Origin: a candidate division FCPU426 bacterium
GTDB taxonomy: Bacteria > Oederibacteriota > JAAXVQ01 > JAUVAV01
DNA: 64,000 bases
Direction of reading: 5' to 3'
Assembly (NCBI GenBank): GCA_040756875.1
Contig: JBFLYH010000001.1
Location: 864,001-928,000, forward strand
Shown here: positions 24,458 to 55,983 of the stretch, in pieces
Layout of the letters: each line of letters opens with the position of its first letter
Position numbering within the stretch: position 1 is the stretch's first letter
Position numbers and translations under genes: made by a program
Notes under the pieces: generated by a model
Databases searched by the model: none
Seen by the model: only the letters and a program-made list of their open reading frames with translations
Told to the model about the DNA's origin: nothing

Positions 24458-24533
24458 TGGTGAGCCGGGAGAGGCTCGAACTCTCGACACCCGCCTTAAA
24501 AGGGCGGTGCTCTACCTACTGAGCTACCGGCTC
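24458..24533 (-). tRNA. tRNA-Lys(UUU)
   Basis: 76-nt cloverleaf GAGCCGG..CCGGCTC-ACCA, anticodon loop CTTTTAA, GTTCGA T-loop. Confidence 0.95.
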
Positions 24534-34390: not shown

Positions 34391-34474
34391 TGGTGCGAGG
34401 GGCGGGAGTTGAACCCGCATGCCAAAGGCACTAGATCCTAAGTCTAGCGTGTCTGCCAGTTCCACCACCCTCGC
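34391..34474 (-). tRNA. tRNA-Leu(UAG)
   Basis: 84 nt with long variable arm, anticodon loop CTTAGGA, CCA end; directly upstream of tig. Confidence 0.95.
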
Positions 34475-34557
34475 GTGACTCCTCCCTTCCAATGACTGAA
34501 ATATTTTTTGCTTCACGGCATGAAATGCGGCAACACATGGAACGCAAGCATCGGATT

Positions 34558-34820
34558 CTGCAACGCCACATTTCGGCGTTGATAATCATAATCATGAGCA
34601 GTTGAGCAGTAGACCGCAGGCGATCTTTCTGCCGTTCAACTGTTCACCTGATCGCCTGCTCTGTTTTTTTCCTGCAACGCCGCATTTCGGCGTTGATAAT
34701 CATAATCATGAGCAGTCGAGCAGTAGACCGCAGGCGATCTTTCTACTGCTCAACTGTTCACCTGATCGCCTGCTCTGTTTTTTTCCTGCAACGCCGCATT
34801 TCGGCGTTGCAGGAAAAAAA
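34558..34820. repeat. Tandem direct repeat, 114-bp unit, about 2.3 copies, highly self-complementary
   Basis: Units start at 34558, 34672 and 34786 (CTGCAACGCC.CATTTCGGCGTTG...); copies 1 and 2 differ at only a few positions. Confidence 0.95.
34778..34820. terminator. Perfect bidirectional intrinsic-terminator-like hairpin abutting the tRNA-Lys 3' end
   Basis: TTTTTTTCCTGCAACGCCG-CATTT-CGGCGTTGCAGGAAAAAAA. Confidence 0.75.
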
Positions 34821-34821
34821 C

Positions 34822-34897
34822 TGGTGGGTGCTACAGGAATCGAACCTGTGGCCCGCTGATTAAGAGTCAGCTGCTCTACCAGCTGAGCTAAGCACCC
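34822..34897 (-). tRNA. tRNA-Lys(CUU)
   Basis: 76-nt cloverleaf, anticodon loop CTCTTAA, CCA end. Confidence 0.95.
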
Positions 34898-34946
34898 AAG
34901 ATGTTAGCGACCTTTCAATACAACCGCGGGCCGGAAACAGAACAAA

Positions 34947-35032
34947 GGAGCAACTTGAGCAAGTTGACCGCAATCGAGCCGCAGCCTTCCATTTACTCAT
35001 TACTCAAATTGTTCCATTTGCTCAATTGCTCC
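34947..35032. repeat. Inverted array of degenerate 8-9-bp units (TTGAGCAA-like) between tRNA-Arg and tRNA-Lys
   Basis: GGAGCAACTTGAGCAAGTTGAC.. facing ..TTGTTCCATTTGCTCAATTGCTCC. Confidence 0.7.
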
Positions 35033-35054
35033 GTTTCCCGCGGCGCGGGAAACC

Positions 35055-35130
35055 TGGCGCGCCTGAGACGAATCGAACGTCCGACCAACGGCTTCGGAGG
35101 CCGTTGCTCTATCCACTGAGCTACAGGCGC
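35055..35130 (-). tRNA. tRNA-Arg(CCG)
   Basis: 76-nt cloverleaf, anticodon loop CTCCGAA, CCA end. Confidence 0.95.
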
Positions 35131-35150
35131 ATAAATTCCAAGATGAAAAT

Positions 35151-35220
35151 GGAGCAACTTGAGCAATTTGAGCAACTCGAACACTCCACTTGCTCAACTT
35201 GCTCTATTGCTCAATTGCTC
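35151..35220. repeat. Second inverted array of 8-9-bp TTGAGCAA-like units between tRNA-His and tRNA-Arg
   Basis: GGAGCAACTTGAGCAATTTGAGCAACTCGAACA facing ACTTGCTCAACTTGCTCTATTGCTCAATTGCTC. Confidence 0.8.
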
Positions 35221-35242
35221 AGCCCCTCGCGCAGCGAGGGGC

Positions 35243-35320
35243 TGGGGTGGACGACGGGATTCGAACCCGCGGCCTCCAGGACCACAACCTGGCGCTCAAA
35301 CCAGCTGAGCTACGTCCACC
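35243..35320 (-). tRNA. tRNA-His(GUG)
   Basis: Cloverleaf with encoded G-1, C discriminator, anticodon loop TTGTGGT, CCA end. Confidence 0.95.
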
Positions 35321-43815: not shown

Positions 43816-43989
43816 CGTTCCCCCTTGGTGGCCTTCCCGCCGTTTCCCCGGAAAAGCGGACATTAGTATATCACAGGGAATGGTCTCCCGGCAGGAATCC
43901 TCGGCGCGCCAAAGAGCCTGCGGACCGGAACGAGGTTTTTTTCAATGCAGCAGTTGGCATTCACGGTTTTTTCATTTACAATACCGGCC

Positions 43990-45297
43990 ATGAACGACCT
44001 TCTGCACCCGCATGCCAAGCGCAATACCGAAAGCCTCATCCAGCACATACAATCCACGCGCAAGGAACGCACCATTCTGTTCACGGACATCGAACATTCG
44101 ACCCGTTTCTGGTCCCACCACGGCGACATCAAAGGCCGCCTGATGGTGGACCGGCACAACTGGCTGCTCTTCCCTATCATCAAGCACTTCGGCGGCTGGG
44201 TCGTCAAAACCATCGGCGATTCCATCATGGCGGCATTTAAAGATCCCGACCAGGCCATGCAGGCCGCCATTGCCTTCCAGCAGATGCTGGAACGCGAACG
44301 CCGGGCCAATCCCGATTTCACCATCCAAATACGCATCGGCCTGCACAGCGGCGCCACCCTGGTCGAGCACAACGATGTATTCGGCGACGTGGTGAACATT
44401 GCGGCCCGCGTGGAAAGCCAGGCCGAGGGCGGGGAGATCCTGCTGTCCGCCGAAACCCGCAAGCACCTCGACCGGAAAAAATACGCCCTGGAAGACCGGG
44501 GCGAATTCATGCCCAAGGGCAAAACCAAAGCCTTGCAAGTGTACCTGTGCCGCTGGCAGGAGGCGCCGGACCTGCTGGCGCCCATCCACGTTTCCACCCG
44601 GCTCCCGCTGGTTCCCCGCCAGCGCTTCGAAATTCTGCTCTATGCCGTCTCCAGCCTGGCCTTGGCCGTCTTCCTGGTTTGGCGCTATTTGCGCTTTCTT
44701 TTGAGCGAAAACGAAACCATCTCCCTGATGTTGCTCAACCCCGGAACTTTTTGGTGGGAATATCCGCTGCTGGTTTTGCTCGGCTTGAGCCTGGCAGCAG
44801 GCGTTTATTATGCGGCCTTTCGTTTGAAAAAATTCCCGCATACCCTGTTGAGAAGCCTGAAAGGCGGTTTCGGTTTTTTGGCGGCGTTTCTGTTGGGACT
44901 GGGACTCTTCAGCCTGATGCCGGGAGCGCCGGGCCACTACCTCCGGACCCCTCTGGCCGCATCCAAGCATTTGTTCGTCAAAGCCCTGCTGCCGGATACG
45001 CCCGTGTATCGCGTCCCGGCCATCGGCGGCGAGATCATCAAGCATTACCAGCCCGGCCAGCTGCTCCTGCTCGCGGACGTGAAAACCAACGGGCCTGTCA
45101 CCTGGAACAAAGTGCTGATCGGCCCCGGCCGCTACGGCTGGACGCCCCGGGTGATGCCGCCGGACATCGGCGTCCCGGCCAAGCGGGTGACCCTCACGGA
45201 TAAATTCACCTTCCGCATCCGCGACATTTATTCCCTGGTCCTGGGCTTGGGCGGTTTTGTTTGGGGTTTCCTCACCTTCCGCCTGCGCCCGGCGTGA
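43990..45297 (+). CDS. Class III adenylate/guanylate cyclase with C-terminal TM segments and an SH3b-like domain
   Basis: ILFTDIEHST, VVKTIGDSIMA, RIGLHSG, DVFGDVVNIAARVE; Lys/Asp specificity residues favour ATP. Confidence 0.85.
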   Translation: MNDLLHPHAKRNTESLIQHIQSTRKERTILFTDIEHSTRFWSHHGDIKGRLMVDRHNWLLFPIIKHFGGWVVKTIGDSIMAAFKDPDQAMQAAIAFQQMLERERRANPDFTIQIRIGLHSGATLVEHNDVFGDVVNIAARVESQAEGGEILLSAETRKHLDRKKYALEDRGEFMPKGKTKALQVYLCRWQEAPDLLAPIHVSTRLPLVPRQRFEILLYAVSSLALAVFLVWRYLRFLLSENETISLMLLNPGTFWWEYPLLVLLGLSLAAGVYYAAFRLKKFPHTLLRSLKGGFGFLAAFLLGLGLFSLMPGAPGHYLRTPLAASKHLFVKALLPDTPVYRVPAIGGEIIKHYQPGQLLLLADVKTNGPVTWNKVLIGPGRYGWTPRVMPPDIGVPAKRVTLTDKFTFRIRDIYSLVLGLGGFVWGFLTFRLRPA

Positions 45298-45968
45298 TCT
45301 TCGCAATACAGCCAGCATAAGCTGACCACCCAGTCCGCGCTGCCGAACCACTTGCCCTGAAATCTTCTCCCCCGGGGGAAATCCCGGCCCAGGTCCTCGT
45401 TCAGGACGAACTCAAAATGATCCGCAGTCACGGGCGGGAGCAGGGACAGGGCCGGGAAGGAAAACCGCCTGCCCACGAGCGGAGACAGGAGTTTGAAGGC
45501 GCTTTCCTTCGCGCCGGCGAGGAAGAGCGGGCTCACGCGGCCGGGCGCCGAAAAAAAGTGCAGCCAGGCGAGTTCGTCCTCATTGGCGATCAGGGCCAGG
45601 CTGCCGGGGCTCAGACGCCGGGCGCGGCTTTCCAGGTCAATGCCCAGGGAACGATAACGCCGCGTGCCTGCGGCCACAGCGCACGCCGCTTGGGCGGCAT
45701 GGGCGATGCTTCCGCAAGTGCCCGCGGGCCAGGCCGGCGCGCCGGTCGCCCTGCTGGGCAGGGGCCGGGGCGCGATCCCCAGCGCGGACAAGGCGCGACG
45801 GGCGCACCAACGGCCGGTTGCGTACTCGCGGACCCGGGCCGGAACCGCCGCGGAGACAGCCGCCCGCTCTTCGGGCCGCAGCACCGCCGAAGTCTTAGGA
45901 GCGGGCGTGCCGCAGAAGTGTAGGCCGAGGGGCGCGAGAGTCCGCCTGAGACGCGAGAAGAAGTCCAT
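45228..45968 (-). CDS. 4'-phosphopantetheinyl transferase (EntD/Sfp-type)
   Basis: REYATGRWCAR, PAWP..GSIAH, LGIDLE, AKESAFK. Confidence 0.88.
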   Translation of the reverse strand: MDFFSRLRRTLAPLGLHFCGTPAPKTSAVLRPEERAAVSAAVPARVREYATGRWCARRALSALGIAPRPLPSRATGAPAWPAGTCGSIAHAAQAACAVAAGTRRYRSLGIDLESRARRLSPGSLALIANEDELAWLHFFSAPGRVSPLFLAGAKESAFKLLSPLVGRRFSFPALSLLPPVTADHFEFVLNEDLGRDFPRGRRFQGKWFGSADWVVSLCWLYCEDHAGRRRKVRKPQTKPPKPRTRE

Positions 45969-45977
45969 GCCTGCCGC

Positions 45978-46505
45978 CTACTCCAGAAAACACACTTCGC
46001 ACAGGGCGGCCGCGCAGATCCGGCCCGCGTAAATCACCTGCCCCTGCACGCTGGCCAGGTAAGGGTCCTGGGCGAGTTTCTTGACCACGACCATGACTTC
46101 CTGTCCGGGAAGCACGGACTCCAGGAAATGCGCGCCTAAAATTTTGGTGGCCCGGACCTTGAGGGGTCGGGGCTCGGCCGCGATCTCACGGCTTTGCCTC
46201 TCCAGGAAAGAATAGAGGCACAATCCCGCCTGACCGATCATTTCCACCTGCAGGGCGCCGGGATAGACCGGCAAGCCGGGGAAATGGCCCCGCAGGACCG
46301 GATCCCCGGGGTCAATGCGGCGGGAAGCGGCCAACACGGCCTGGTCCAGGTCCAACCCGATCAAGCGGTCGAGCAGAAGAAAGGGTTCGCGGTGCGGCAG
46401 GATGCGGCGGATGGCGGCCTGGTCGCAAGACCAGCCCTGGGTCAGCAGGTCCGGCGGGGCCAGGGGCTTCTTGCGCAGGGACTTGAGGATCGTCTCGGAG
46501 TCCAC
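45978..46505 (-). CDS. FabZ-like 3-hydroxyacyl-ACP dehydratase
   Basis: LPHREPFLLLD and GHFPGLPVYPGALQVEMIGQ; likely start is the GTG just after the upstream stop (track ORF is over-extended). Confidence 0.88.
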   Translation of the reverse strand: MDSETILKSLRKKPLAPPDLLTQGWSCDQAAIRRILPHREPFLLLDRLIGLDLDQAVLAASRRIDPGDPVLRGHFPGLPVYPGALQVEMIGQAGLCLYSFLERQSREIAAEPRPLKVRATKILGAHFLESVLPGQEVMVVVKKLAQDPYLASVQGQVIYAGRICAAALCEVCFLE

Positions 46506-46507
46506 GT

Positions 46508-47764
46508 TCAGGTCTTCAACCCCTTGGCGATGACGTCTTCGATGATGTTGCACGCCTGGTCCATCTCTTCCCGGGTCAGCTGGGCGGAGACCGAAATGCG
46601 GAAGCGGCGGGCATGGGCGGGCACGGCCGGGAAATCCACGGGCTGCAGGAACAGGCCGCGCTTCTGGATCTCCGTGGCCATCTGGAAAAGTTTTTCGCCC
46701 GAGGACCCGATGATGATCGGGATCACCTGGGATTCGGTCTCCCCCAGGTCCAGCTTCAGGTCCAGCAGGCGGCGCTTGAGATAGGCCGTGTTCTCCCAGA
46801 GCTTCTCCCGCAGGGAGGAATCGCGGGTCGCGACTTCGAGGGCCTTCATCAGGCCGGCCACAATCGCGGGAGCGGGCGCGCAGGAGAAGTGGAAGGGCGA
46901 CGCGTAGCATTTCAGGTAGCGGATGAGCCTGGCGTTGGAGCAGATGAACCCCCCCACCCCGCCGAAGGATTTGCTCAGCGTCCCAAAGCTGACCCCGACC
47001 TTGTGCTCCAAACCGAAATGCTCGCCCACGCCGCGGCCGCTCGGGCCGAACATCAGGGTGGAATGCGCCTCGTCCAGATACAGGCCGGCCTGGTGCCGTT
47101 CGCAGGCCTCCACCACGCCCGGCAGCTTCACCAGGTCCCCGTCCATGGAGTACACACCCTCCACGGCCACCAGCTTGCGCTTGCCCTTGCTCCGCTCCAG
47201 CATCTGTTCCAGGGAGTCCAGGTCGTTGTGCGCGAAGAAGAGCATCTTGGCGCCGGCCAAGGTCCCGCCGTCCACCAGGCTCTTGTGGCATTTTTCATCG
47301 AGGATGAATACGTCGCCCTTGCGCAGGATTCCCTGGATGGCGCCCATGTTCCCGCCCAGGCCGCTGGAAAAGAGGATGCAATCTTCTTTCTGCTTGAACT
47401 CGGCCAGCTGTTTCGCGAATTGGACGTGCAGGTCAAAAGTGCCGGAGAGAAGCGGCGCGCCTGAGGCTCCCAAGCCGTACTGTTCCAGGGCCTCGCGCGC
47501 GGCCTGGATGACCTCCGGATGAGTGGACAGGCCGAGGTAGTTATACGAGGTCAGGTTGATGACCTTGCGTTTTTTATGGTCGAGGTTGCTGATGATCTCG
47601 GTGGTGCTCCGGGGCGCACGCAGCAACTGCTGCTCGAAAAAGCTCAGCCCATACCCCACCTGCGGGTCCGCCATCCAGGCATCAAAGTCCTCGGGCGGAG
47701 CCAGCACGTCCGGATTGTCCGTGTAGTGGAAATCCGCCAGGCTGTATTTTAAGGGATTGTCCAT
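46508..47764 (-). CDS. PLP-dependent alpha-oxoamine synthase (serine palmitoyltransferase / BioF / Kbl family)
   Basis: SYNYLGLSTHP, FAHND, EGVYSMDGD, DEAHS, GTLSKSFG. Confidence 0.9.
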   Translation of the reverse strand: MDNPLKYSLADFHYTDNPDVLAPPEDFDAWMADPQVGYGLSFFEQQLLRAPRSTTEIISNLDHKKRKVINLTSYNYLGLSTHPEVIQAAREALEQYGLGASGAPLLSGTFDLHVQFAKQLAEFKQKEDCILFSSGLGGNMGAIQGILRKGDVFILDEKCHKSLVDGGTLAGAKMLFFAHNDLDSLEQMLERSKGKRKLVAVEGVYSMDGDLVKLPGVVEACERHQAGLYLDEAHSTLMFGPSGRGVGEHFGLEHKVGVSFGTLSKSFGGVGGFICSNARLIRYLKCYASPFHFSCAPAPAIVAGLMKALEVATRDSSLREKLWENTAYLKRRLLDLKLDLGETESQVIPIIIGSSGEKLFQMATEIQKRGLFLQPVDFPAVPAHARRFRISVSAQLTREEMDQACNIIEDVIAKGLKT

Positions 47765-47774
47765 CCGCGGCTTC

Positions 47775-48020
47775 TTACCGGCTCTGGTTTTCCATGAATT
47801 TGTTCACCAGCTCGTCGATGGATTTGATCTCGGCCAGCTCGGACCTGGGTATTTTAATGTTCAGCTCCCGCATCGAACAGGAAACCACCTCGATGATGTC
47901 CAGGCTGTTGGCGCCAAAATCCTTCAGCGACCGCTTCGGGTCGAGGTCCGACTCCTTGAGGTCTTCCACGTTCTCCAAAATGTGCTTCTTGACGACTTCC
48001 AAAATCTGCGACCGATCCAT
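47775..48020 (-). CDS. Acyl carrier protein with GANS motif (AcpK-like beta-branching donor type)
   Basis: 81 aa, acidic, DFGANSLDIIEVV. Confidence 0.9.
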   Translation of the reverse strand: MDRSQILEVVKKHILENVEDLKESDLDPKRSLKDFGANSLDIIEVVSCSMRELNIKIPRSELAEIKSIDELVNKFMENQSR

Positions 48021-48073
48021 TCCATGCTCCTTAGTTTTTTTCGTCTCCCGGGTTCCAAAACCCGGGCGGCTTA

Positions 48074-48889
48074 TTATACAGGTTTTCCGGCTTTCCGGCT
48101 TTCATAATACCGCATCATGATGTTGTCCCGCAAGGAGACTCCGTAGTCCGCGGTGATGATTTGTCCGTTGACCGCGTCCAACAGGCCGCTGCACAGCCCC
48201 AAAACCGTCCGGCCGCACGCTTCGGGGGTCAACAGCATGTTTTCCGAAACCCCCTGGGCCCGCAGGTACTTGAAGAACTCCTCCCCGAAAATCATCTCGA
48301 AAGATTCGGTCCTTACCATGCCGAACCGGATGACGTTCACCCGGCTCCCTTCCTCGAACAAATGCGCGGACAGATACTTGGCGAAAAACTCGAGCAGGGC
48401 TTTGGAGGCCGCCACGAAGTCATAGCCCGGGTAGAAATGGTCTGGCCCGTCGCTGGAGATCCCCACCAGGTGCCGGGGATAGGCGCCGAATTTTTCTTTC
48501 AGCTTCCGGGCGTAGGCGACGAGCGGCCAGGTGCTGTATTCCAGGCTCTTGAAGAGGGTCTGCTTCTTGTACTCCTCCAGGGCCATGGTCCGCTGGGCAA
48601 AGCCCACGTTGCTGATGAAATAGTCCACGCGCGCTTCGCGCCCGGCGATCTCCGCCAGCAGGCGGTCCGTGTCCTCATCGCGGGAAACATCCGCCTCGAG
48701 CAGCACAGGTTCGGCCGCGCCCAGGCTCGCAAACTGCGCCAACACCTGTCCGGGGTCCGCAGAACCCCACTTATAGGTCAGGTAGCACTTCGCCCCGGCC
48801 TGGGCGAACTGCAGGCCCGCGGCCAGGCCGATGCCCTTGGTCCCGCCGGTAATGAGCGCCACTTTTCCAGCCAAGTCAATTTTCAGCAT
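48074..48889 (-). CDS. SDR enoyl-ACP reductase (FabL/FabI-like)
   Basis: TGGTKGIG; YDFVAASK is the YxxxxxxK pattern of enoyl reductases rather than YxxxK. Confidence 0.75.
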   Translation of the reverse strand: MLKIDLAGKVALITGGTKGIGLAAGLQFAQAGAKCYLTYKWGSADPGQVLAQFASLGAAEPVLLEADVSRDEDTDRLLAEIAGREARVDYFISNVGFAQRTMALEEYKKQTLFKSLEYSTWPLVAYARKLKEKFGAYPRHLVGISSDGPDHFYPGYDFVAASKALLEFFAKYLSAHLFEEGSRVNVIRFGMVRTESFEMIFGEEFFKYLRAQGVSENMLLTPEACGRTVLGLCSGLLDAVNGQIITADYGVSLRDNIMMRYYESRKAGKPV

Positions 48890-48896
48890 CACGGCC

Positions 48897-49646
48897 TCAC
48901 GCGGGGTAGGTTTCCTCGATCCGCTTCCGGGTCTCGGGATCGGCAAAGCACAGCCGGTGCATGCGGTCTTCCCCGGCCCGGGCTTCGGCGAGGAGGGCCT
49001 GTTTTTTCGCGCCGAGAGATTGTTTCAGTAAAAGCACAGATTGTAACCTTTTTTCGCTGATTTGCAAGGCCAGATTTTCCGCCTGGGCCATGACTTCCGC
49101 TTTAGGCAGGATGTAATTGATTTGGGTTCCCCGGCCTTCCAGTTCCCGGCCCTTGAAGCTTTTGGCCGTGTACATCATCTCGGCGGCGACATTGGGCCCC
49201 ATCAGTTCGGCCAGCAGGCGCGTGCAGCCCATGCCGGGCGTGAAGCCCAGGGACATGAAGACCGCGCCGTACCGGCTCTCCCTGGCCGCCACGACGAGGT
49301 CCGAACAGGCGGCCAGCACCAGGCCGCCGCCCACGGCGTGGCCTTCCATGGCCGCGATCACCGGGAACGGCATGCCCACCAGGCGTTCGGAGATCGCCAG
49401 GTCCTTCACGTGCACCCGCCCCTCGCACAGCGCGAGCAGGTCCTCTTTCTCCGCGCCCCCGCAGAACACGTCCGGCAGGCCGGACAGAATCAGCACTTTG
49501 GCCTTCCGGCTGCCGGCCAGCTTTTCCAGGGCGTCCAGCATGTCCCGCACGAACGCCTGGCTGAAGCGGTTCTTGGTTTCCGCGTCCAGCATCCTGAGAC
49601 GGGCAATGCCGTTCTCCGCGACTTCCGCCTGAAGCCGTTCGCTCAT
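48897..49646 (-). CDS. Enoyl-CoA hydratase-like decarboxylase ECH2 (PksI-like)
   Basis: FCGG, AMEGHAVGGG, FMSLGFTPGMG; start MSERLQ in an ATGA overlap. Confidence 0.85.
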   Translation of the reverse strand: MSERLQAEVAENGIARLRMLDAETKNRFSQAFVRDMLDALEKLAGSRKAKVLILSGLPDVFCGGAEKEDLLALCEGRVHVKDLAISERLVGMPFPVIAAMEGHAVGGGLVLAACSDLVVAARESRYGAVFMSLGFTPGMGCTRLLAELMGPNVAAEMMYTAKSFKGRELEGRGTQINYILPKAEVMAQAENLALQISEKRLQSVLLLKQSLGAKKQALLAEARAGEDRMHRLCFADPETRKRIEETYPA

Positions 49647-50467
49647 GATCCCCCCTGGGGCGCCAGCGGGTGCTTGGGCTGGTATTTGGAGAACCAGGAC
49701 GGCGTCAGGCCGTCTTCGAACGCTTGGATCGCGGCCAGGACCTCCGGGTCCTGGATCAGCTCCAGCAGCTTGGCCTGAGCCTTGGCGCTGGCCTCTTCCC
49801 GGGTCTGGCGCGCCAGCTGGCTGAAAAACCGCTTGGCCTCGGCCAGGGCCCGGGGCGAGGCCCGGAGCAGGGTCTTGACCACGGCCTTGGCGCCGGCCGC
49901 CAGCTGGGCCTGGCTGAAAACCTCGTCCACCAGGTTCACGGCCAGCGCTTCGGCGGCGTCGAGCCGCTTCGCGGTCAAGATCAAATACTTGAGGACCTGG
50001 GCCGGCACGCGCGCGCCGGCGAGGAACGGAATCACGTTGGCGGGAATGAGGCCCAGGATGACCTCGGAGAACTCGAAAGTGGCCCCTTCCGAGGCCAGCA
50101 CGATGTCGCACGCGCCTGCCAGGCCGATCCCGCCCGCCTTCACCGCGCCGTGCACCACCGCGACCACGGGTTTGGCCGAGTCCTGGATGGCGGCCAGCAG
50201 AGCCGTGTATTGCCCCACGGTTTCTTTCGCGAGGCCGGGATCAGCGGCGCCGGCCCGCACCAGGCTCAGGTCCATGCCCAGGCAGAAGGAATCGCCCTCG
50301 GCCCGCAGGACGACCACGCGCACGTCCGGGTCGGACGCGGCCCGGTTCAAGGCCGCCTGGAGCGACCCCAGACTCTCGTGGTTGAGCACGTTGCCGGCCG
50401 CGCCGTTGGTCAGCGTGACCACGGCCGCGCCGGAATCAACCTCGTACGCTGTCACGGCCACGTTCAT
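49643..50467 (-). CDS. Enoyl-CoA hydratase-like dehydratase ECH1 (PksH-like)
   Basis: FCLGMDL, VKAGGIGLAGACD, FSEVILGLIPANV. Confidence 0.85.
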   Translation of the reverse strand: MNVAVTAYEVDSGAAVVTLTNGAAGNVLNHESLGSLQAALNRAASDPDVRVVVLRAEGDSFCLGMDLSLVRAGAADPGLAKETVGQYTALLAAIQDSAKPVVAVVHGAVKAGGIGLAGACDIVLASEGATFEFSEVILGLIPANVIPFLAGARVPAQVLKYLILTAKRLDAAEALAVNLVDEVFSQAQLAAGAKAVVKTLLRASPRALAEAKRFFSQLARQTREEASAKAQAKLLELIQDPEVLAAIQAFEDGLTPSWFSKYQPKHPLAPQGGS

Positions 50468-51695
50468 CGCTCCATTCGTAAGTTCGAACGAAATCCTTCA
50501 CCCCGGCGAGCACCAGATACCGTTGGCCGGCGTAGTGCCGGCCGTACCAATCGCCCAGCAGGCCGAAGTCCGGGGTCACATCCGGCTGCTCGATCATGCT
50601 TTCCCGGATGGTTTCGATTTGTTCGTACTCGGCAAAGCTCACTTCCCTGCGGCTGTCCAGGGCCTGGTCTAAATGCGGTCCGGGCACAGCCGCTTTGGCC
50701 CCGGGGAGAATGCGGGCGCTGTAGAATTCGCCGATCGCTCCGGACCCGTAGGTGAAAAAGCCAATCCGGTCTCCGGGCGCAACCGGCGCGTCGCCGCTGA
50801 GCAGGCCGGCCAGGCCGATGAAATTGCTGGCGCCATAGGTGCTGCCCACCCGCTGGGCAAAACGCAGGGAGGGCCAAACCTTGGCCTGGAAACTTTCCTG
50901 GACCTCGGCTTTTTTCCTGGGCCGCGCCAGGTTGCACAAGGTGCGGTGCGCCTGGAAGGCCATGCCCGGGAACGGCATGTGGTAGATGTTGTATTGGAAG
51001 TGCCGGTCAAAATCCACGGCCTCGGCGAAAGACTCCCGGTAGTGCGCGTACGCCCCTTCCAGGGCGTCCATGTAGCTGTAGAGGCTGACCTCGTTGTTGC
51101 CGGATTCATGCTTCGCGGTCGGCCGGAACGTGTCATAAATGTCCGTGGTCCAGGAGCCTTTGTGCTCCAGCTCGTATTCCACGACCCTGGGGGTGTCGCT
51201 GACCAGCACCGCGGCCGCGGCCCCGCCCAGGACGAATTCGTGGTCTTTCCCGAAATGCGTCCGGCTGAAGTCCGCGGCGATCACCAGGGCTTTTTTCCCC
51301 CGGTTCAGGCCCGCGGCGATCCAATTGACCGCCGTGTCCAAAGCCGCCACGCCGCTGTAGCACGCGTGCTTGGTCTCGTAATTCCTCACGTTCGGCGGCA
51401 GGCGCAGGGCCCGGTGCAGGTTGGTGCTGATGGGCTTGCCGAAATCCACGGAGCCCTCGGTGCCCACGATCAGCAGGCCGATGGACCGGCGATCCTCCTC
51501 GGAAAGCATGGGCTCGGCCGCGTTGGCGGCCATGGTCACCGTGTCCTCATAGGGGGGGTTGAGGGAGCGGGTGCGGATCAGGTAATTGTTCACCACCTGC
51601 TCCGGGTCCTTGCCCCGGGCCCGGGCCAGCTCGGCCTGCTGCAGGCAGAGCGAGCAGCCGTAGAGATTGATCTTTTCGATGCCGACCCTTGTCAT
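50436..51695 (-). CDS. HMG-ACP synthase (HMG-CoA synthase-like, PksG/HCS type)
   Basis: EDTVTMAANAA, GTEGSVDFGK, ETKHACYSG, YHMPFPGM, FTYGSG; alternative start at 51707. Confidence 0.92.
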   Translation of the reverse strand: MTRVGIEKINLYGCSLCLQQAELARARGKDPEQVVNNYLIRTRSLNPPYEDTVTMAANAAEPMLSEEDRRSIGLLIVGTEGSVDFGKPISTNLHRALRLPPNVRNYETKHACYSGVAALDTAVNWIAAGLNRGKKALVIAADFSRTHFGKDHEFVLGGAAAAVLVSDTPRVVEYELEHKGSWTTDIYDTFRPTAKHESGNNEVSLYSYMDALEGAYAHYRESFAEAVDFDRHFQYNIYHMPFPGMAFQAHRTLCNLARPRKKAEVQESFQAKVWPSLRFAQRVGSTYGASNFIGLAGLLSGDAPVAPGDRIGFFTYGSGAIGEFYSARILPGAKAAVPGPHLDQALDSRREVSFAEYEQIETIRESMIEQPDVTPDFGLLGDWYGRHYAGQRYLVLAGVKDFVRTYEWSDERGRDSVRG

Positions 51696-51733
51696 CTTAT
51701 ACCCCATTCATAATGTATAGATATTCGCGACAT

Positions 51734-51761
51734 GTAGGGGCGTTCAATTGAACGCCCCTAC
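51734..51761. repeat. Perfect 28-bp palindrome of REP type (GTAG family)
   Basis: GTAGGGGCGTTCAATTGAACGCCCCTAC equals its own reverse complement. Confidence 0.8.
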
Positions 51762-51800
51762 GATCATGGCTCATCGAGACATCTTCGCGGCGGATCAACC

Positions 51801-52541
51801 TTACGGCGCGTAGGTCAGGCCGCCGGCCACGCGGATGACCTCGCCGTTGATGAACGCCGCTTCGTCCGAGATCAGGAAGTTCACCAGATTGGCGATGTCC
51901 TCGGGTGCGCCCACTTTTTTCTGCGGGCAATGCTGCAGCCAGAAAGCGCGCAGGCTCTCGGCCAAATTGTCCCGCGTGAGGTCCGTGGGCACATAGCCCA
52001 CGGTGACCACGTTCGCGGTCACGCCTTTGGAACCGTATTCCTTGGCCAGGGTCTGGGTCAGGCCGATCAGCCCCGCCTTGCTGGCCGCGTAATTGGCCTG
52101 CCCGCTGCAGCCGGCCTCGGCCAGGGAGGAAATATTCACGATCCGGCCCTTGCGGTTGGAGAGGAAATGCATGAGCAGGCCGCGGATCACGTAAAAGGGT
52201 CCGGTGAGGTTCGTGGCGATCACCTCGTCCCACTCCTCGTTGCTCATGAGCGCGGCGGCCTGGTTGCGAACCACAGCCGCGTTGTTCACCACCGCCCCCA
52301 CGTCCCCAAAATCCCCGAGCACGGTTTCGACGGTCTTTTCCACCTGATCCGCCTGCTTGACGTCCAGTGGGTAGGCCCGCACCACGGACCCCGGAGCGAG
52401 CGTCCGGGCCTGGGCCAGCGTCTCTTCGGCGGCCTTCGCGTTCTGCGCGTAGGTGAAGGCGCAGCCCAGGCCGGCCTTGGCCAGGCGGAGCACGATGGCC
52501 CTGCCGATTCCCCTGGACCCGCCGGTCACGAGCGCGTTCAT
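51801..52541 (-). CDS. 3-oxoacyl-ACP reductase (FabG-like)
   Basis: TGGSRGIG, VNNA, NISS, GQANYAASKAG. Confidence 0.93.
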   Translation of the reverse strand: MNALVTGGSRGIGRAIVLRLAKAGLGCAFTYAQNAKAAEETLAQARTLAPGSVVRAYPLDVKQADQVEKTVETVLGDFGDVGAVVNNAAVVRNQAAALMSNEEWDEVIATNLTGPFYVIRGLLMHFLSNRKGRIVNISSLAEAGCSGQANYAASKAGLIGLTQTLAKEYGSKGVTANVVTVGYVPTDLTRDNLAESLRAFWLQHCPQKKVGAPEDIANLVNFLISDEAAFINGEVIRVAGGLTYAP

Positions 52542-53839
52542 ATTTTCCCCTCCACCTTCGCGAGCAGGGCGCAACAGTTCAGGCCGCCGAAGCCGAAGGA
52601 ATTTTTAAGCAGGTAGCGGACCTCGTGGTCCTGGGCCTGGTTGGCGCAGACGTCGAGGTCGATTTCCGGGTCGAGCTCGTCCACGTTGATGGTGGGATGG
52701 AGCCGGTTGTGGTTCATCTGCAGCACCGCGCCGATGGTTTCCACGACGGGCGCGGACCAGCACACGTGGCCGAGCATGGATTTCGGGGCGTTGAGCTTGA
52801 GCCTGTAGGCGTGCGGCCCGAAAGCCGCCTTGATGGCCCGAATCTCCTCCAGGTCGCCCTGGGGCGTGCCCGTGGCGTGGCAATTGATGTAATCGATCTG
52901 CTCGGGCTTCACGCCGGTCGCAGCCAGGAGGTCCTTGATCAGCCGCTCCTGGCTCTCGGCCGACGGCGCCGGGAGGTGGTTGGCGTTGGCGTTGGCTTTC
53001 ACGGCCAGGACCTCGGCGTAAATGCGCGCGCCCCGCTGCCGGGCAGCCGAGAGCTCTTCCAGAATGAGCGTGCCGGCCCCGTGGGAGGGCACGAAGCCGC
53101 ACCGTTTCCGGTCAAAGGGCCGGGAAGCGGCGGCCGGGTTCTGCTGGTACTCGGGCTTGACCACCACGGAATCCAGGTACGCCATGGCGTGGATGTCCGC
53201 GGCCGTCATGTCGAAAACCGCGCCGGCGACGACCGCGCGTTCGCATTCGCCCGTCGCCACGTCCCGGAACCCCTCGCGCAGGGCGATGTTGCCGCTGGCG
53301 CAGGCCGCGCCCACGGTAAAGGCCGGACCGCGCGCGCCCAGGACCTCGGTAACCGAGGCGGCGATGTTGGGGTCCAGGGCCTCCACGCCGAAGAGCGGAT
53401 CGATGTACAGGGGTTCGGCCTTGAACTGCTCGGAATTTTTCAGGATGTACCGGGAATTGAAATTATGCCCGGCCACCAGCACGCTGGTCGCGAACGGGTC
53501 GGCCTCCAGTCCGAAGAGGCCGGCATCCAGCCAGGCGCCGAGGCTGCAGAGCAGGGTGAGGCGGTTGGAAAAGGTCGCGGTCTTGAACAGCTTGGCGGTT
53601 TTCTTGTGAATCAGGGGTGGAAGGGATCCTCCCAGGCGCTCCAAGGCCGCTTTGGCGTTATAGTCCCCCAGGTCGCCGCCGATCTTGCACTCCACCTGCG
53701 AGAGGTCCAGCGAGGTCCAGACCTTGACGCCCGAGACGCCCCGGAGCAGTTGATCGTAATACCCCGCCAGGGTGTCCCCCAGGGGATTGATGGTCGCCAT
53801 TCCGGTGATCACCACGCGTCTCTTTCCGCTCGCCGCCAC
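52538..53839 (-). CDS. Beta-ketoacyl-ACP synthase (FabF/PksF-like), active-site Cys retained
   Basis: VGAACASG, SRPFD, NCHATGT, KSMLGH, NSFGFGG. Confidence 0.9.
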   Translation of the reverse strand: MAASGKRRVVITGMATINPLGDTLAGYYDQLLRGVSGVKVWTSLDLSQVECKIGGDLGDYNAKAALERLGGSLPPLIHKKTAKLFKTATFSNRLTLLCSLGAWLDAGLFGLEADPFATSVLVAGHNFNSRYILKNSEQFKAEPLYIDPLFGVEALDPNIAASVTEVLGARGPAFTVGAACASGNIALREGFRDVATGECERAVVAGAVFDMTAADIHAMAYLDSVVVKPEYQQNPAAASRPFDRKRCGFVPSHGAGTLILEELSAARQRGARIYAEVLAVKANANANHLPAPSAESQERLIKDLLAATGVKPEQIDYINCHATGTPQGDLEEIRAIKAAFGPHAYRLKLNAPKSMLGHVCWSAPVVETIGAVLQMNHNRLHPTINVDELDPEIDLDVCANQAQDHEVRYLLKNSFGFGGLNCCALLAKVEGKI

Positions 53840-53842
53840 GGC

Positions 53843-55099
53843 TCACCCTTTGAACTTCGAGATGACGACCGAGGCGTTCTGGCCGCCGAACCCGAAACTG
53901 TTGGAGAGAAAATGGCCGACCTCGGCCTCGCGCGCCTGATTGCGCACCACGTGCAGGTGGATCTCCGGATCCTGTTCGAACTGATTGATGGTCGGGTGGA
54001 TGATGCCCTTGTCCACGGCCAGCAGGCCGGCGATGGCCTCCACGCCGCCGCCGGCGCCAACCAGGTGCCCGATCATGGACTTGGTACTGTGCACCGGAAT
54101 GTCCGGCGTGTGCTCCCGGAACACCTTGCCGATGGCGCGGCTTTCCGACAAATCGCCCAACGGCGTCGAGGTTCCGTGGGCGTTGATGAGATCGATGTCA
54201 CCGGGTTCGAGGCGCGCGCTTTCCAAGGCCAGGTTCATGGCCTCGACGGCGCCCCGCCCTTCGGGATGGGGCGCGACCAGATCGTGCGCGTCGCAGGTGA
54301 AGCCCCAGCCCGACAGTTCGCCGTAGATGCGGGCGCCCCGCCGGCGGGCGTGTTCCAATTCCTCCAGGCACAGAACCCCTGCGCCTTCTCCCAAGACAAA
54401 GCCGTCGCGGTCCTTGTCGAACGGCCGGCTGGCGGTTTCGGGCGAATCATTCCGCTCGGACAAAGCCCGGATGACTCCGAACCCCGCGAAACCCATGGTG
54501 TTCACCACCGCTTCAGCTCCGCCGGCCAGCATCGCGTCCGCCTCGCCCAGCTTGATCATCATGGCCGCGAGGCCCAGGGCGTGGTTGCTGGAAGCGCAGG
54601 CCGAATTGACCGTGAAATTAGGGCCCTGAAGTCCGTATTCCGTGGCCAGATAACCCGCCGCAGTATTGGGGATCGTTCCCACCACGTAAAATGGCGAAAC
54701 CGATTCCATGCCTTTTTGCAGGACCGTGCTCACGTTCGCAAACTGCACGCCCACCCCGGCGTCCCCGGTCCCGATGACCGCGCCAAAGCGGCGGGGGGCC
54801 CGGGCCACCTCGAGCCCCGAGTCCCTGAGCGCCTGCGCGCCCGCGATCTGGCTGAAAACAATGAAGCGGTCCAGGCGCCGGATCATCTTCGGGTGGAGAA
54901 AATAGGGGGCCAGGTCAGGCAGGTCCACTTCCCCGCCGATCCTGACCGGGAACCCGTCCAGGTCCGTGTGCCGGGCCAAGCGGATTCCGGAGCGGCCCGC
55001 AGTCAAATTCTCCCAGAATTCACCGATCGTGTGGCCGAGGGGATTGACCGTTCCCAGGCCGGTAATCACCACTCGCGTGGCATAAGGATCACGCCGCAT
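53843..55099 (-). CDS. Beta-ketoacyl-ACP synthase II (FabF-like)
   Basis: NSACASS, GFVLGEGAG, NAHGTST, KSMIGH, NSFGFGGQN. Confidence 0.93.
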   Translation of the reverse strand: MRRDPYATRVVITGLGTVNPLGHTIGEFWENLTAGRSGIRLARHTDLDGFPVRIGGEVDLPDLAPYFLHPKMIRRLDRFIVFSQIAGAQALRDSGLEVARAPRRFGAVIGTGDAGVGVQFANVSTVLQKGMESVSPFYVVGTIPNTAAGYLATEYGLQGPNFTVNSACASSNHALGLAAMMIKLGEADAMLAGGAEAVVNTMGFAGFGVIRALSERNDSPETASRPFDKDRDGFVLGEGAGVLCLEELEHARRRGARIYGELSGWGFTCDAHDLVAPHPEGRGAVEAMNLALESARLEPGDIDLINAHGTSTPLGDLSESRAIGKVFREHTPDIPVHSTKSMIGHLVGAGGGVEAIAGLLAVDKGIIHPTINQFEQDPEIHLHVVRNQAREAEVGHFLSNSFGFGGQNASVVISKFKG

Positions 55100-55419: not shown

Positions 55420-55983
55420 TCAGTTTTTACCGGCTTTGCCGAGCAACGCCGTCCGTTTGGCGATATCCGCCGTGCCGATTGCGGCCAACCCGTTTTCCTT
55501 CGCCCGGCCGAGGGACGCCTCGAATGCCTCCGCCGTCACATGCCCTTTGGGTTCGATAAAAAGCAATCTTCCGCCGGGTTTCAACGCCTGGCCGATCTCC
55601 CTGAAAAATCTCCCGTCGTCCGGCACTTCGTGCACCACGGCGACCGCAAAAGCGAAATCGACCTTTCCCTGCAGATCCCCGATCCGCAAAGAATCCGCGG
55701 CGCACACGCGCAGTTCGATCCTGTCCGAAAGGCCCGCTTGGGCCGCACGCTTCTGCAGGCCGGCGATCATCCCGGCTTGCAGATCAACGCAAATCACCCT
55801 GCCTTGCGGACCAGCCAGGCGGGCGGCAGGCAGGCTGAAAAACCCCATGCCGCACCCAGGCTCCAGCACAGTCATTCCCGGTTTGATGTGCGCGCCCAAC
55901 AACCGCCTCGGATTGAGCGCCAGCTTCCTGAGCGGATTGACCAGCCACCATCCCATGCTTGCCGGAAAAACGCGTTCTGCCAT
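55420..55983 (-). CDS. Class I SAM-dependent methyltransferase
   Basis: VLEPGCGMGFF, VDLQ, VVHEV, LKPGGRL. Confidence 0.85.
   Translation of the reverse strand: MAERVFPASMGWWLVNPLRKLALNPRRLLGAHIKPGMTVLEPGCGMGFFSLPAARLAGPQGRVICVDLQAGMIAGLQKRAAQAGLSDRIELRVCAADSLRIGDLQGKVDFAFAVAVVHEVPDDGRFFREIGQALKPGGRLLFIEPKGHVTAEAFEASLGRAKENGLAAIGTADIAKRTALLGKAGKN

Follow-up and report, generated by a model that had tools for sequence, protein, structure and literature searches.

A cluster of eleven co-oriented genes (45228-55099, minus strand) was identified in a 64,000-nucleotide stretch of the genome of a candidate division FCPU426 bacterium (GenBank assembly GCA_040756875.1, contig JBFLYH010000001.1, positions 864,001 to 928,000), hereafter called the window. 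Based on open reading frames and on Pfam and NCBIfam models the genes encode, in order, two ketosynthases (KS1 and KS2), a ketoreductase (KR), a homologue of hydroxymethylglutaryl (HMG) synthase (HCS), two crotonases (ECH1 and ECH2), an enoyl reductase (ER), an acyl carrier protein (ACP), an alpha-oxoamine synthase (AOS), a dehydratase (DH) and a phosphopantetheinyl transferase (PPTase). It is well supported that the cluster is real, widespread and uncharacterised, and that it is a variant in which known kinds of system are combined, namely a beta-branching cassette, a type II fatty acid synthase (FAS) and off-loading by an AOS. We consider it probable, though by no means certain, that this operon specifies a self-contained, dissociated type II pathway of the fatty-acid or polyketide kind, which would use one dedicated ACP and end in a methyl-branched amino-ketone lipid base. 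An earlier note on this DNA had described eleven closely spaced genes in one orientation, an arrangement that was borne out.

The beta-branching part of the cluster was examined by homology to solved structures and curated models. HCS matched CurD best among PDB entries (257 bits), followed by PksG (219 bits), the hydroxymethylglutaryl-CoA synthase 5hwo (215 bits) and further HMG-CoA synthases at about 181 bits. Its Glu, Cys and His motifs, which we take to be the catalytic triad, were conserved in 43 of 43 sequences. ECH2 scored 262 bits with NF005496, above the curated cut-off of 215, and its PDB matches were PksI (146 bits) and CurF (139.5 bits), against 79 bits for the next crotonase; in the alignment, one of its His residues falls on the His that varies between PksI entries and on a CurF His. 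ECH1 is a crotonase in the position expected for a cassette; it gave 139.5 bits with NF005498 (cut-off 250), and its best PDB match was the generic crotonase 3i47 (105 bits). It is proposed to be the dehydratase of the HMG-type intermediate. The canonical cassette consists of a donor ACP, a condensation-inactive ketosynthase (KS0), an HMG synthase (HMGS), ECH1 and ECH2, which act on the acceptor ACP of a polyketide synthase (PKS) module (PMC10006238). An HMG synthase with its triad and an ECH2 were found here; a KS0 and a separate donor ACP or Trp-flagged module acceptor ACP were not. Judged from its predicted enzymes, the cluster works like a beta-branching cassette, yet is no canonical member of that group.

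The type II FAS elongation set is complete, with discrete KS, KR, DH, ER and ACP proteins that each have catalytic motifs; of these, KS1 alone exceeded an equivalog cut-off (TIGR03150 fabF, 510.8 bits against 493.75). KS2 reached 324 bits with NF005490, "polyketide beta-ketoacyl:ACP synthase" (cut-off 445), and 298 bits with the fabF model, and its Cys-His-His triad was invariant in 40 of 40 sequences, those of the window and 39 related loci. KS1 is proposed to be the elongating ketosynthase and KS2 a priming ketosynthase, which would carry out decarboxylation and the first condensation. KR matched adh_short_C2 (186 bits) and TIGR01830 (241.7 bits, cut-off 297.75). The best PDB matches of ER were enoyl-ACP reductases (1ulu with 84 bits and several FabI entries with about 65 bits); it scored 91 bits with the FabL model NF005975 (cut-off 328), and a Tyr-x6-Lys spacing is present in its translation. 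DH contains a FabA domain (57.8 bits) and gave 71.7 bits with the FabZ model NF000582 (cut-off 113), while the best NCBIfam model for ACP was NF005502 (63 bits, cut-off 79). Among the related loci with any ACP match, there was one per locus in 33 of 33. The family labels in the earlier note stood for most genes; two required correction, in that KS2 is not a decarboxylase-only protein and ECH1 lies nearer to generic or methylglutaconyl-type crotonases than to PksH.

The AOS scored below every NCBIfam AOS equivalog cut-off, including those for Kbl (322 bits against 460) and ALAS (251 against 339). Its best PDB match (272 bits) was a serine palmitoyltransferase (SPT), entry 3a2b/8guh, which is cited as SPT in PMC12134224 and which we take from PMC10196870 to be the Sphingobacterium enzyme; the second (238 bits) was 8s1y/7poa, 8-amino-7-oxononanoate synthase/2-amino-3-ketobutyrate CoA ligase. 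A maximum likelihood tree was built from 44 rows, consisting of 32 cluster AOSs, ten annotated-plasmid references and two paralogues from the genome of the window; the references were hand-picked from 618 and 643 plasmid matches and include no curator-named SPT or CqsA, and the bootstrap was not fully settled. In this tree the cluster AOSs fall into a single clade (100/100), whose stem measures 1.04 changes per column and which is separate from Kbl, BioF and HemA and from a Bacteroidales AOS group that includes a fusion protein of the window's genome. The phylogeny called for in the earlier note, against SPT, BioF, Kbl, CqsA and RedN, thus sets the AOS apart from BioF and Kbl, with curator-named SPT and CqsA lacking among its rows. 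None of the 618 records of the plasmid collection that match the AOS is of the cluster type, all being less than 60% identical.

The PLP-binding Lys and the stacking His are kept in the cluster AOSs, and two other positions of the active site are altered. The Asn of the conserved Ser/Ala-Asn-x-Tyr-Leu-Gly motif is replaced by Tyr in 31 of the 32 sequences, and in the glycine-rich loop of the clade Arg is replaced by Pro, Ser-Arg-Phe becoming Ala-Pro-Leu. In the alignment the comparison AOSs keep the Asn in 12 of 12 cases and the Arg in 10 of 12. In the Sphingobacterium SPT, Asn52 is water-linked to the serine hydroxyl, and Phe83 of the Ser81-Arg82-Phe83 loop lines the acyl site (PMC10196870).

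Two further AOS paralogues occur in the genome. One of them (392 aa) adjoins bioB and groups with a named BioF (100/98). With a separate bioF in that position, the cluster AOS is not a BioF. A role of the cluster AOS in biotin synthesis was rejected on this ground and because the cut-off of TIGR00858 was missed.

The genome of the window (3.22 Mb in 7 contigs, rated 100% complete) was searched for ketosynthase, PP-binding and condensation domains. Nine ketosynthase matches were found, every one in an open frame of at most 811 aa, together with four PP-binding matches, each in a stand-alone frame of about 100 aa, and no condensation domain; no modular PKS and no synthetase for non-ribosomal peptides (NRPS) was detected by this search. 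The genome scan for type I or trans-AT PKSs that had been suggested was therefore negative, and since there is no modular PKS anywhere in the genome, the synthase named beforehand as a finding that would speak against a self-contained pathway, a PKS served by the cassette, is absent. The genome also contains very long open frames, up to 12,551 aa, thirteen of which exceed 4,000 aa (for example, one on contig C1 from 375288 on the plus strand, and one on the minus strand of contig C2 at 1036819 counted from the reverse-complement end); these coincide with none of the ketosynthase, PP-binding or condensation-domain matches.

Housekeeping fatty acid synthesis is encoded elsewhere on contig 1 by a fab cluster (FabH, FabD, AcpP and FabF). 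KS1 is 48% identical to the housekeeping FabF at C1:539197, and the FAS-type genes of the cluster either share 25-48% identity with their housekeeping counterparts or lack a detectable paralogue. Two other loci combine KS and ACP genes. The one at C2:733997-744215 has the order ACP-KS-KS and encodes two CN_hydrolase proteins, which resemble apolipoprotein N-acyltransferase, as well as an 807-aa protein whose C-terminal part is a KS; it adjoins SPFH/NfeD genes. The other, at C3:11676-15034, encodes an acyl-CoA dehydrogenase, an ACP and a KS, with a second, weaker KS match just beyond. Both are small, dissociated and type II-like, and neither has tandem ACPs, in keeping with a self-contained cluster. 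HCS is the sole HMG-synthase homologue in the genome, and no HMG-CoA reductase was found there; HCS is therefore not a mevalonate enzyme, and that role was rejected. When ECH1 and ECH2 were used as tblastn queries (E <= 1e-5), the only genes of the genome that matched were these two themselves; a further close crotonase-fold enzyme is apparently lacking.

Related loci were sought by scanning the HCS protein against one genome per prokaryotic species, and their gene content was determined by tblastn with the proteins of the window. Forty-four syntenic loci were confirmed in other genomes, the majority from Spirochaetota, the others from Candidatus Aminicenantes, Candidatus Firestonebacteria, Brevinematales, Chloroflexota, a spirochaete symbiont of Olavius and Myxococcota, the last including two strains of Enhygromyxa salina. 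They share the core order KS2-KR-HCS-ECH1-ECH2-ER-ACP-AOS-DH. As the same gene set recurs in the same order in 44 loci of other genomes, the cluster is not a chance assembly. Every one of the 31 loci of sufficient extent contains the AOS, and the remaining 13 end at a contig edge before that position; KR was found in 41 loci, ECH1 in 39 and DH in 29. Twenty-eight loci have a KS1 homologue, placed upstream, as it is in the window, or immediately downstream in convergent orientation. In the Myxococcota loci, of which there are three, genes for the AOS, DH and a malonyl transferase are sited upstream instead, and KS2 was the only cluster KS found by tblastn. PPTase homologues occupy the same position in five loci (L001, L002, L004, L024 and L038), and a second type of PPTase lies beside nine Spirochaete loci. 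In the Olavius algarvensis spirochaete endosymbiont (L035), whose genome measures only about 2.1 Mb, the cluster is retained in full; a search with a single query did not reveal the GNAT-like gene described below. Conserved gene order in other genomes, a check proposed in the earlier note, was thereby found: across phyla the HCS cassette is always accompanied by an ACP, a KS, a KR and an AOS of its own.

Within these phyla the distribution is uneven. HCS was found in 8 of 99 genomes of the window's phylum, all of them from its order, and in 27 of 401 genomes of a Spirochaetota sample, with an identity of at least 58% in 22 of these. The sequences from Aminicenantes, Chloroflexota and the window, the last with its three closest relatives, are all nested among Spirochaetota sequences in the AOS tree, which points to horizontal spread of the package. 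Close relatives of the AOS are plentiful in metagenomes: identities of 71-95% were found for the best 120 database clusters, whose names are generic only, and the ESM Atlas returned generic AOS and GNAT clusters only.

Several relatives carry genes that the cluster in the window lacks. Twenty loci encode their own malonyl-CoA:ACP transacylase. A 377-aa protein without a Pfam match, which a feature search places among the GNAT acetyltransferases, is encoded in 15 loci and lies directly upstream in the same orientation in 13 of them. The genome of the window has two homologues of this protein. One is part of a 795-aa fusion at C3:188885-191272 (L045:5885-8272, minus strand), in which an N-terminal SPT-like AOS, scoring 528 bits on the CFB SPT model (cut-off 640), is joined to a C-terminal GNAT-like domain of about 377 aa; it looks like a natural fusion of a long-chain-base synthase with an N-acyltransferase. 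The other is a stand-alone paralogue at C3:235395-236549. The fusion and the position of the GNAT gene upstream of the HCS cluster argue for subsequent N-acylation of the amine that the AOS produces, and in the relatives the upstream GNAT-type acyltransferase probably converts the AOS product to a ceramide-like lipid in this way. The AOS step first and N-acylation second is the order reported for bacterial ceramide synthesis (PMC11087976; PMC11324152). In the Enhygromyxa version a GT4 glycosyltransferase gene follows and the ER-like gene, of the short-chain dehydrogenase/reductase (SDR) type, is doubled. Two Spirochaetales loci (L013:4848-5744 and L017:4232-5080) have an extra SDR gene ahead of the GNAT-like gene at the cluster's head; it encodes a candidate for the enzyme that would reduce the 3-keto group left by the AOS.

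The pathway that we favour would run as follows. The PPTase would convert the ACP to its holo form, and malonate would be loaded by a malonyl transferase, here the housekeeping FabD and in many related loci an enzyme of their own. KS2 would supply acetyl-ACP and acetoacetyl-ACP; HCS would add acetyl to the beta-keto group, and dehydration by ECH1 followed by decarboxylation by ECH2 would leave a beta-methyl branch on an enoyl thioester. Reduction of the double bond by ER would, in the favoured version, give isovaleryl-ACP as a branched starter for an iso-branched chain, to be elongated by KS1, KR, DH and ER. Branching at the acetoacetyl stage is preferred because no chain-length gating is needed and because CurD, the closest solved relative of HCS, acts on acetoacetyl-ACP. 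The AOS would finally catalyse the decarboxylative condensation of the acyl-ACP with an amino acid (serine-like, although this is not established) to a methyl-branched 2-amino-3-keto lipid, which in relatives the GNAT-type acyltransferase encoded upstream would N-acylate to a ceramide-like lipid. The sequences establish the gene families, the catalytic motifs, the lack of a partner PKS and the conservation of the package. Every chemical step is inferred from family membership, and chain length, branch position, amino acid and cellular role are likewise predictions.

In favour of a lipid product are the dedicated FabF-type KS1, the GNAT gene of the relatives, the glycosyltransferase of Enhygromyxa and the precedents for an ACP-dependent SPT and for a PKS paired with an AOS: an SPT that uses a dedicated acyl-ACP has been described (PMC11324152), and a PKS and AOS pair makes sphinganines (PMC12134224). 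The earlier note had proposed a self-contained pathway to a methyl-branched acyl chain released as an aminoketone; each part of this that sequences can test has held, and the product itself is predicted.

A number of observations weigh against this reading. KS2 is unlike the condensation-inactive KS0 of canonical cassettes in keeping its catalytic triad, ECH1 matched PksH with only 73 bits, and the ACP has no Trp at all and hence no Trp flag. Neither an N-acyltransferase nor a 3-keto reductase gene is present in the window's own cluster, and neither ER nor DH was found by tblastn in the Chloroflexota locus (L042). The AOS fell well short of the SPT models (NF047600, 321.7 bits against 640; NF047599, 277.4 against 500; NF047603, 240 against 670). 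Because the Asn and the Arg are lost specifically in its clade, serine use is doubtful, and its choice of substrate may differ from that of SPT. The clade is sister to two plasmid AOSs, of Bacteroides ovatus and Phocaeicola dorei (95/85, with a long-branch warning). On the Phocaeicola dorei plasmid NZ_CP072250.1 (L057, 5986-7940) the AOS gene is immediately followed by a gene for a TetR/AcrR regulator, an arrangement that resembles the Lgs/TetR pairs of Bacteroides fragilis. The patchy distribution suits accessory metabolism as well as it does a lipid. Finally, none of the listed sequencing runs that carry cluster DNA is an RNA run; the sole listed run holding it is a groundwater DNA run, which may be the source sample.

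Part of this evidence is what would be expected if the product were a diffusible signal, namely a short- or medium-chain branched amino-ketone or alpha-hydroxy-ketone like CAI-1 or the Bacteroides Lgs molecule, a reading that we regard as unlikely. The nearest references in the tree are the plasmid AOSs just described, one of them followed by a TetR gene, and TetR-linked Bacteroides AOSs are described as producing a released ligand (preprint 10.1101/2025.08.20.671311). The departure of the AOS active site from that of SPT and the patchy, horizontally transferred distribution also fit. However, in the loci compared, the surroundings of the cluster contain no conserved regulator, sensor or transporter; the sister grouping connects long branches and is possibly spurious, and the plasmid AOSs are putative Lgs orthologues at most. 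CqsA itself is a poor match: the AOS reached 194.2 bits with the model NF005526 (cut-off 428), and CqsA was the weakest named AOS type among its PDB matches (106 bits). The FabF-type elongating KS, the GNAT acyltransferase of 13 loci and the Enhygromyxa glycosyltransferase point rather to a long-chain, decorated lipid.

A lipid with its branches elsewhere would be formed if HCS, ECH1 and ECH2 acted on longer beta-ketoacyl-ACPs, either once, near the thioester, or in alternate cycles, giving a 3-methyl or a multi-methyl, isoprenoid-like chain. Such alternation is mechanically possible, since a full reductive loop (KR, DH and ER) and the branching loop share a single ACP, the cluster has two different KSs, and the remodelled loop at the acyl site of the AOS could accommodate a branch close to the thioester. 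We nevertheless hold late or repeated branching to be quite improbable, as no sequence feature programmes the alternation, the ACP is single and tandem acceptor ACPs are lacking, and the starter-unit role, in line with the substrate of CurD, needs no gating. Just as improbable is its extension to a polyketide-style mimic of isoprenoids, in which alternating loops would build a multi-methyl chain to which the non-canonical AOS would add an amino acid other than serine. If true, approximately one in twenty Spirochaetota species, along with several uncultured phyla from anoxic environments, would make a new class of bacterial aminolipids, in which orphan branched-lipid biomarkers might have their source.

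The two remaining explanations are very weak. It is hardly credible that the AOS is of the BioF type and that the cluster makes a pimelate-like or other primary-metabolic thioester for a cofactor: FAS-like genes accompany bioF in some sulfate reducers and the bioF model TIGR00858 scored 328.3 bits, but this is below its cut-off of 426.45, the separate AOS beside bioB groups with a named BioF, ECH2-type decarboxylation gives a methyl branch and not a dicarboxylate, and the distribution among relatives is patchy. Action of the cassette in trans on another synthase, be it one of the two other KS/ACP loci (C2:733997-744215 and C3:11676-13808) or a PKS missing from the assembly, is equally hard to credit. 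In its favour are the existence of these loci, assembly gaps that hold 500 N and the fact that canonical HMGS cassettes work in trans (PMC10006238); but the loci are small (ACP-KS-KS with CN_hydrolases and the 807-aa KS protein, and acyl-CoA dehydrogenase-ACP-KS-KS) and have no tandem ACPs, the genome is rated 100% complete, and every related locus, in five or more phyla, has the cassette in physical linkage with an ACP, a KS, a KR and an AOS of its own.

The genes of the cluster and its neighbours are listed in Table 1. With refined start codons the genes overlap or lie at most 10 nt apart, apart from gaps of 93 nt between KR and HCS and 53 nt between ER and ACP; the start codon of KR is preceded by GGAGG. 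The cyclase and methyltransferase genes named as flanks in the earlier note are both present. No homologue of the methyltransferase was found by tblastn in any of the 44 related loci, and it is therefore not counted as part of the cluster. The cyclase and PPTase genes are convergent and their 3' ends share 70 nt (45228-45297). A scan for promoters and terminators gave counts no higher than in shuffled sequence, and an Rfam search of the window and four related loci revealed tRNAs only and no riboswitch. Four minus-strand tRNA genes are grouped in less than 1 kb inside the window (34394-35319), and a fifth is located at 24461-24533.

Table 1. Genes of the cluster and flanking genes, with coordinates in the window
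Feature	Predicted product	Length (aa)	Position	Strand	Basis
KS1	FabF-type beta-ketoacyl-ACP synthase II	418	53843..55099	-	TIGR03150
KS2	Divergent ketosynthase	433	52538..53839	-	Best NCBIfam model NF005490 "polyketide KS"
KR	FabG-like 3-oxoacyl-ACP reductase	246 (from ATG at 52541)	51801..52541	-	adh_short_C2
HCS	HMG-synthase homologue of beta-branching type	423	50436..51707	-	HMG_CoA_synt N and C domains
ECH1	Crotonase	274	49643..50467	-	ECH_1, 141.7 bits
ECH2	PksI/CurF-type decarboxylase	249	48897..49646	-	NF005496
ER	Enoyl-ACP reductase, SDR of FabI/FabL family	about 271	48074..48889	-	PDB matches
ACP	Acyl carrier protein	81	47775..48020	-	PP-binding, 36.4 bits
AOS	PLP-dependent alpha-oxoamine synthase	418	46508..47764	-	Aminotran_1_2
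DH	FabZ-like 3-hydroxyacyl-ACP dehydratase	175 (from GTG at 46505)	45978..46505	-	FabA domain
PPTase	Sfp/EntD-type phosphopantetheinyl transferase	246	45228..45968	-	4PPT_N, 79 bits; ACPS, 31 bits
Flank	Guanylate_cyc protein (adenylate/guanylate cyclase gene)		43945-45297	+	Pfam/NCBIfam
Flank	SAM (S-adenosylmethionine) methyltransferase		55420-55983	-	Pfam/NCBIfam

Beta-branching cassettes are textbook accessories of giant modular PKSs, and here their chemistry appears to be built into a small, stand-alone machine of the fatty-acid type whose last enzyme would form an amino-lipid. The package has passed between at least five phyla, whose members are for the most part uncultured. Confirmation of the product would make the cluster a new route to methyl-branched sphingoid-like lipids or branched signals that is independent of branched-chain amino acids. 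It would also define a new subfamily of AOSs, altered in the active site and of interest to biocatalysis, and would give environmental lipidomics a gene marker by which branched aminolipids could be interpreted. An experimental entry point is offered by the cultured species Enhygromyxa salina, in which a diverged version occurs. A literature search revealed no characterised pathway of this architecture, nor had the earlier note known of one, and no paper on a cluster that combines HCS with an AOS.

The proposed chemistry is the same as that of the alternative isovaleryl-CoA route of myxobacteria (MvaS, LiuC, AibA/B and AibC), in which an HMG thioester is converted via 3-methylglutaconyl and dimethylacrylyl to isovaleryl thioester, the primer of iso-branched lipids, and ECH1 resembles hydratases of the methylglutaconyl type. 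The cluster differs in that its intermediates would be bound to ACP and not to CoA, in that its predicted decarboxylase is the crotonase-fold ECH2 and not the glutaconate-CoA-transferase-like AibA/B, and in the physical linkage of the route to elongation and to an AOS.

With the HMGS cassettes of bacillaene (PksF/AcpK/PksG/PksH/PksI), curacin (CurA-F), mupirocin and virginiamycin, the cluster shares an HCS closest to CurD and PksG, an ECH2 of the PksI/CurF family, a crotonase at the ECH1 position, a small discrete ACP and a free-standing KS best matching NF005490. It differs from them in having no modular PKS, so that one ACP without a Trp flag must be both donor and acceptor, in a KS2 that keeps Cys-His-His, in an ECH1 of the generic or methylglutaconyl type, and in the placement of the cassette inside a full type II FAS set ending in an AOS.

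Two sphingolipid systems are comparable at the releasing step. In Caulobacter (Spt/AcpR/AasR, then bCerS and CerR) an ACP gene likewise adjoins that for an SPT-like AOS, and the order of AOS action and N-acylation fits the presence of the GNAT-like gene upstream of the cluster in 13 of the related loci. Caulobacter, however, loads its ACP by means of an acyl-ACP synthetase, whereas the cluster would build the acyl chain de novo on the ACP; the cluster AOS lies outside the curated SPT equivalogs and lacks the conserved Asn and Arg, and a CerR-type reductase is missing from the cluster in the window. PfSgaAB of Pseudomonas fluorescens MYb115, which makes sphinganines, also couples a dedicated synthase to an AOS that releases a long-chain base, as is proposed here. 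PfSgaA is a single multidomain iterative type I PKS without a branching cassette, while the enzymes of the cluster are discrete and include HCS, ECH1 and ECH2.

The AOS shares its PLP-dependent fold with CqsA of Vibrio and Lgs of Bacteroides fragilis, and the TetR-linked Bacteroidales plasmid AOSs are its nearest neighbours in the tree. In contrast to those systems, the cluster has no cognate sensor or TetR gene nearby, lies far below the cut-off of the CqsA model and has a whole acyl-chain factory attached. A further parallel in setting is provided by the orphan clusters termed "HCS associated with type II PKS" (bioRxiv 10.1101/509463), in which an HCS also occurs outside a modular PKS and is unexplained. 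Seven such cases are discussed there as possible modifiers of aromatic polyketides, with no link to an AOS mentioned in the available part of the preprint, and these seven may include members of the cluster family described here.

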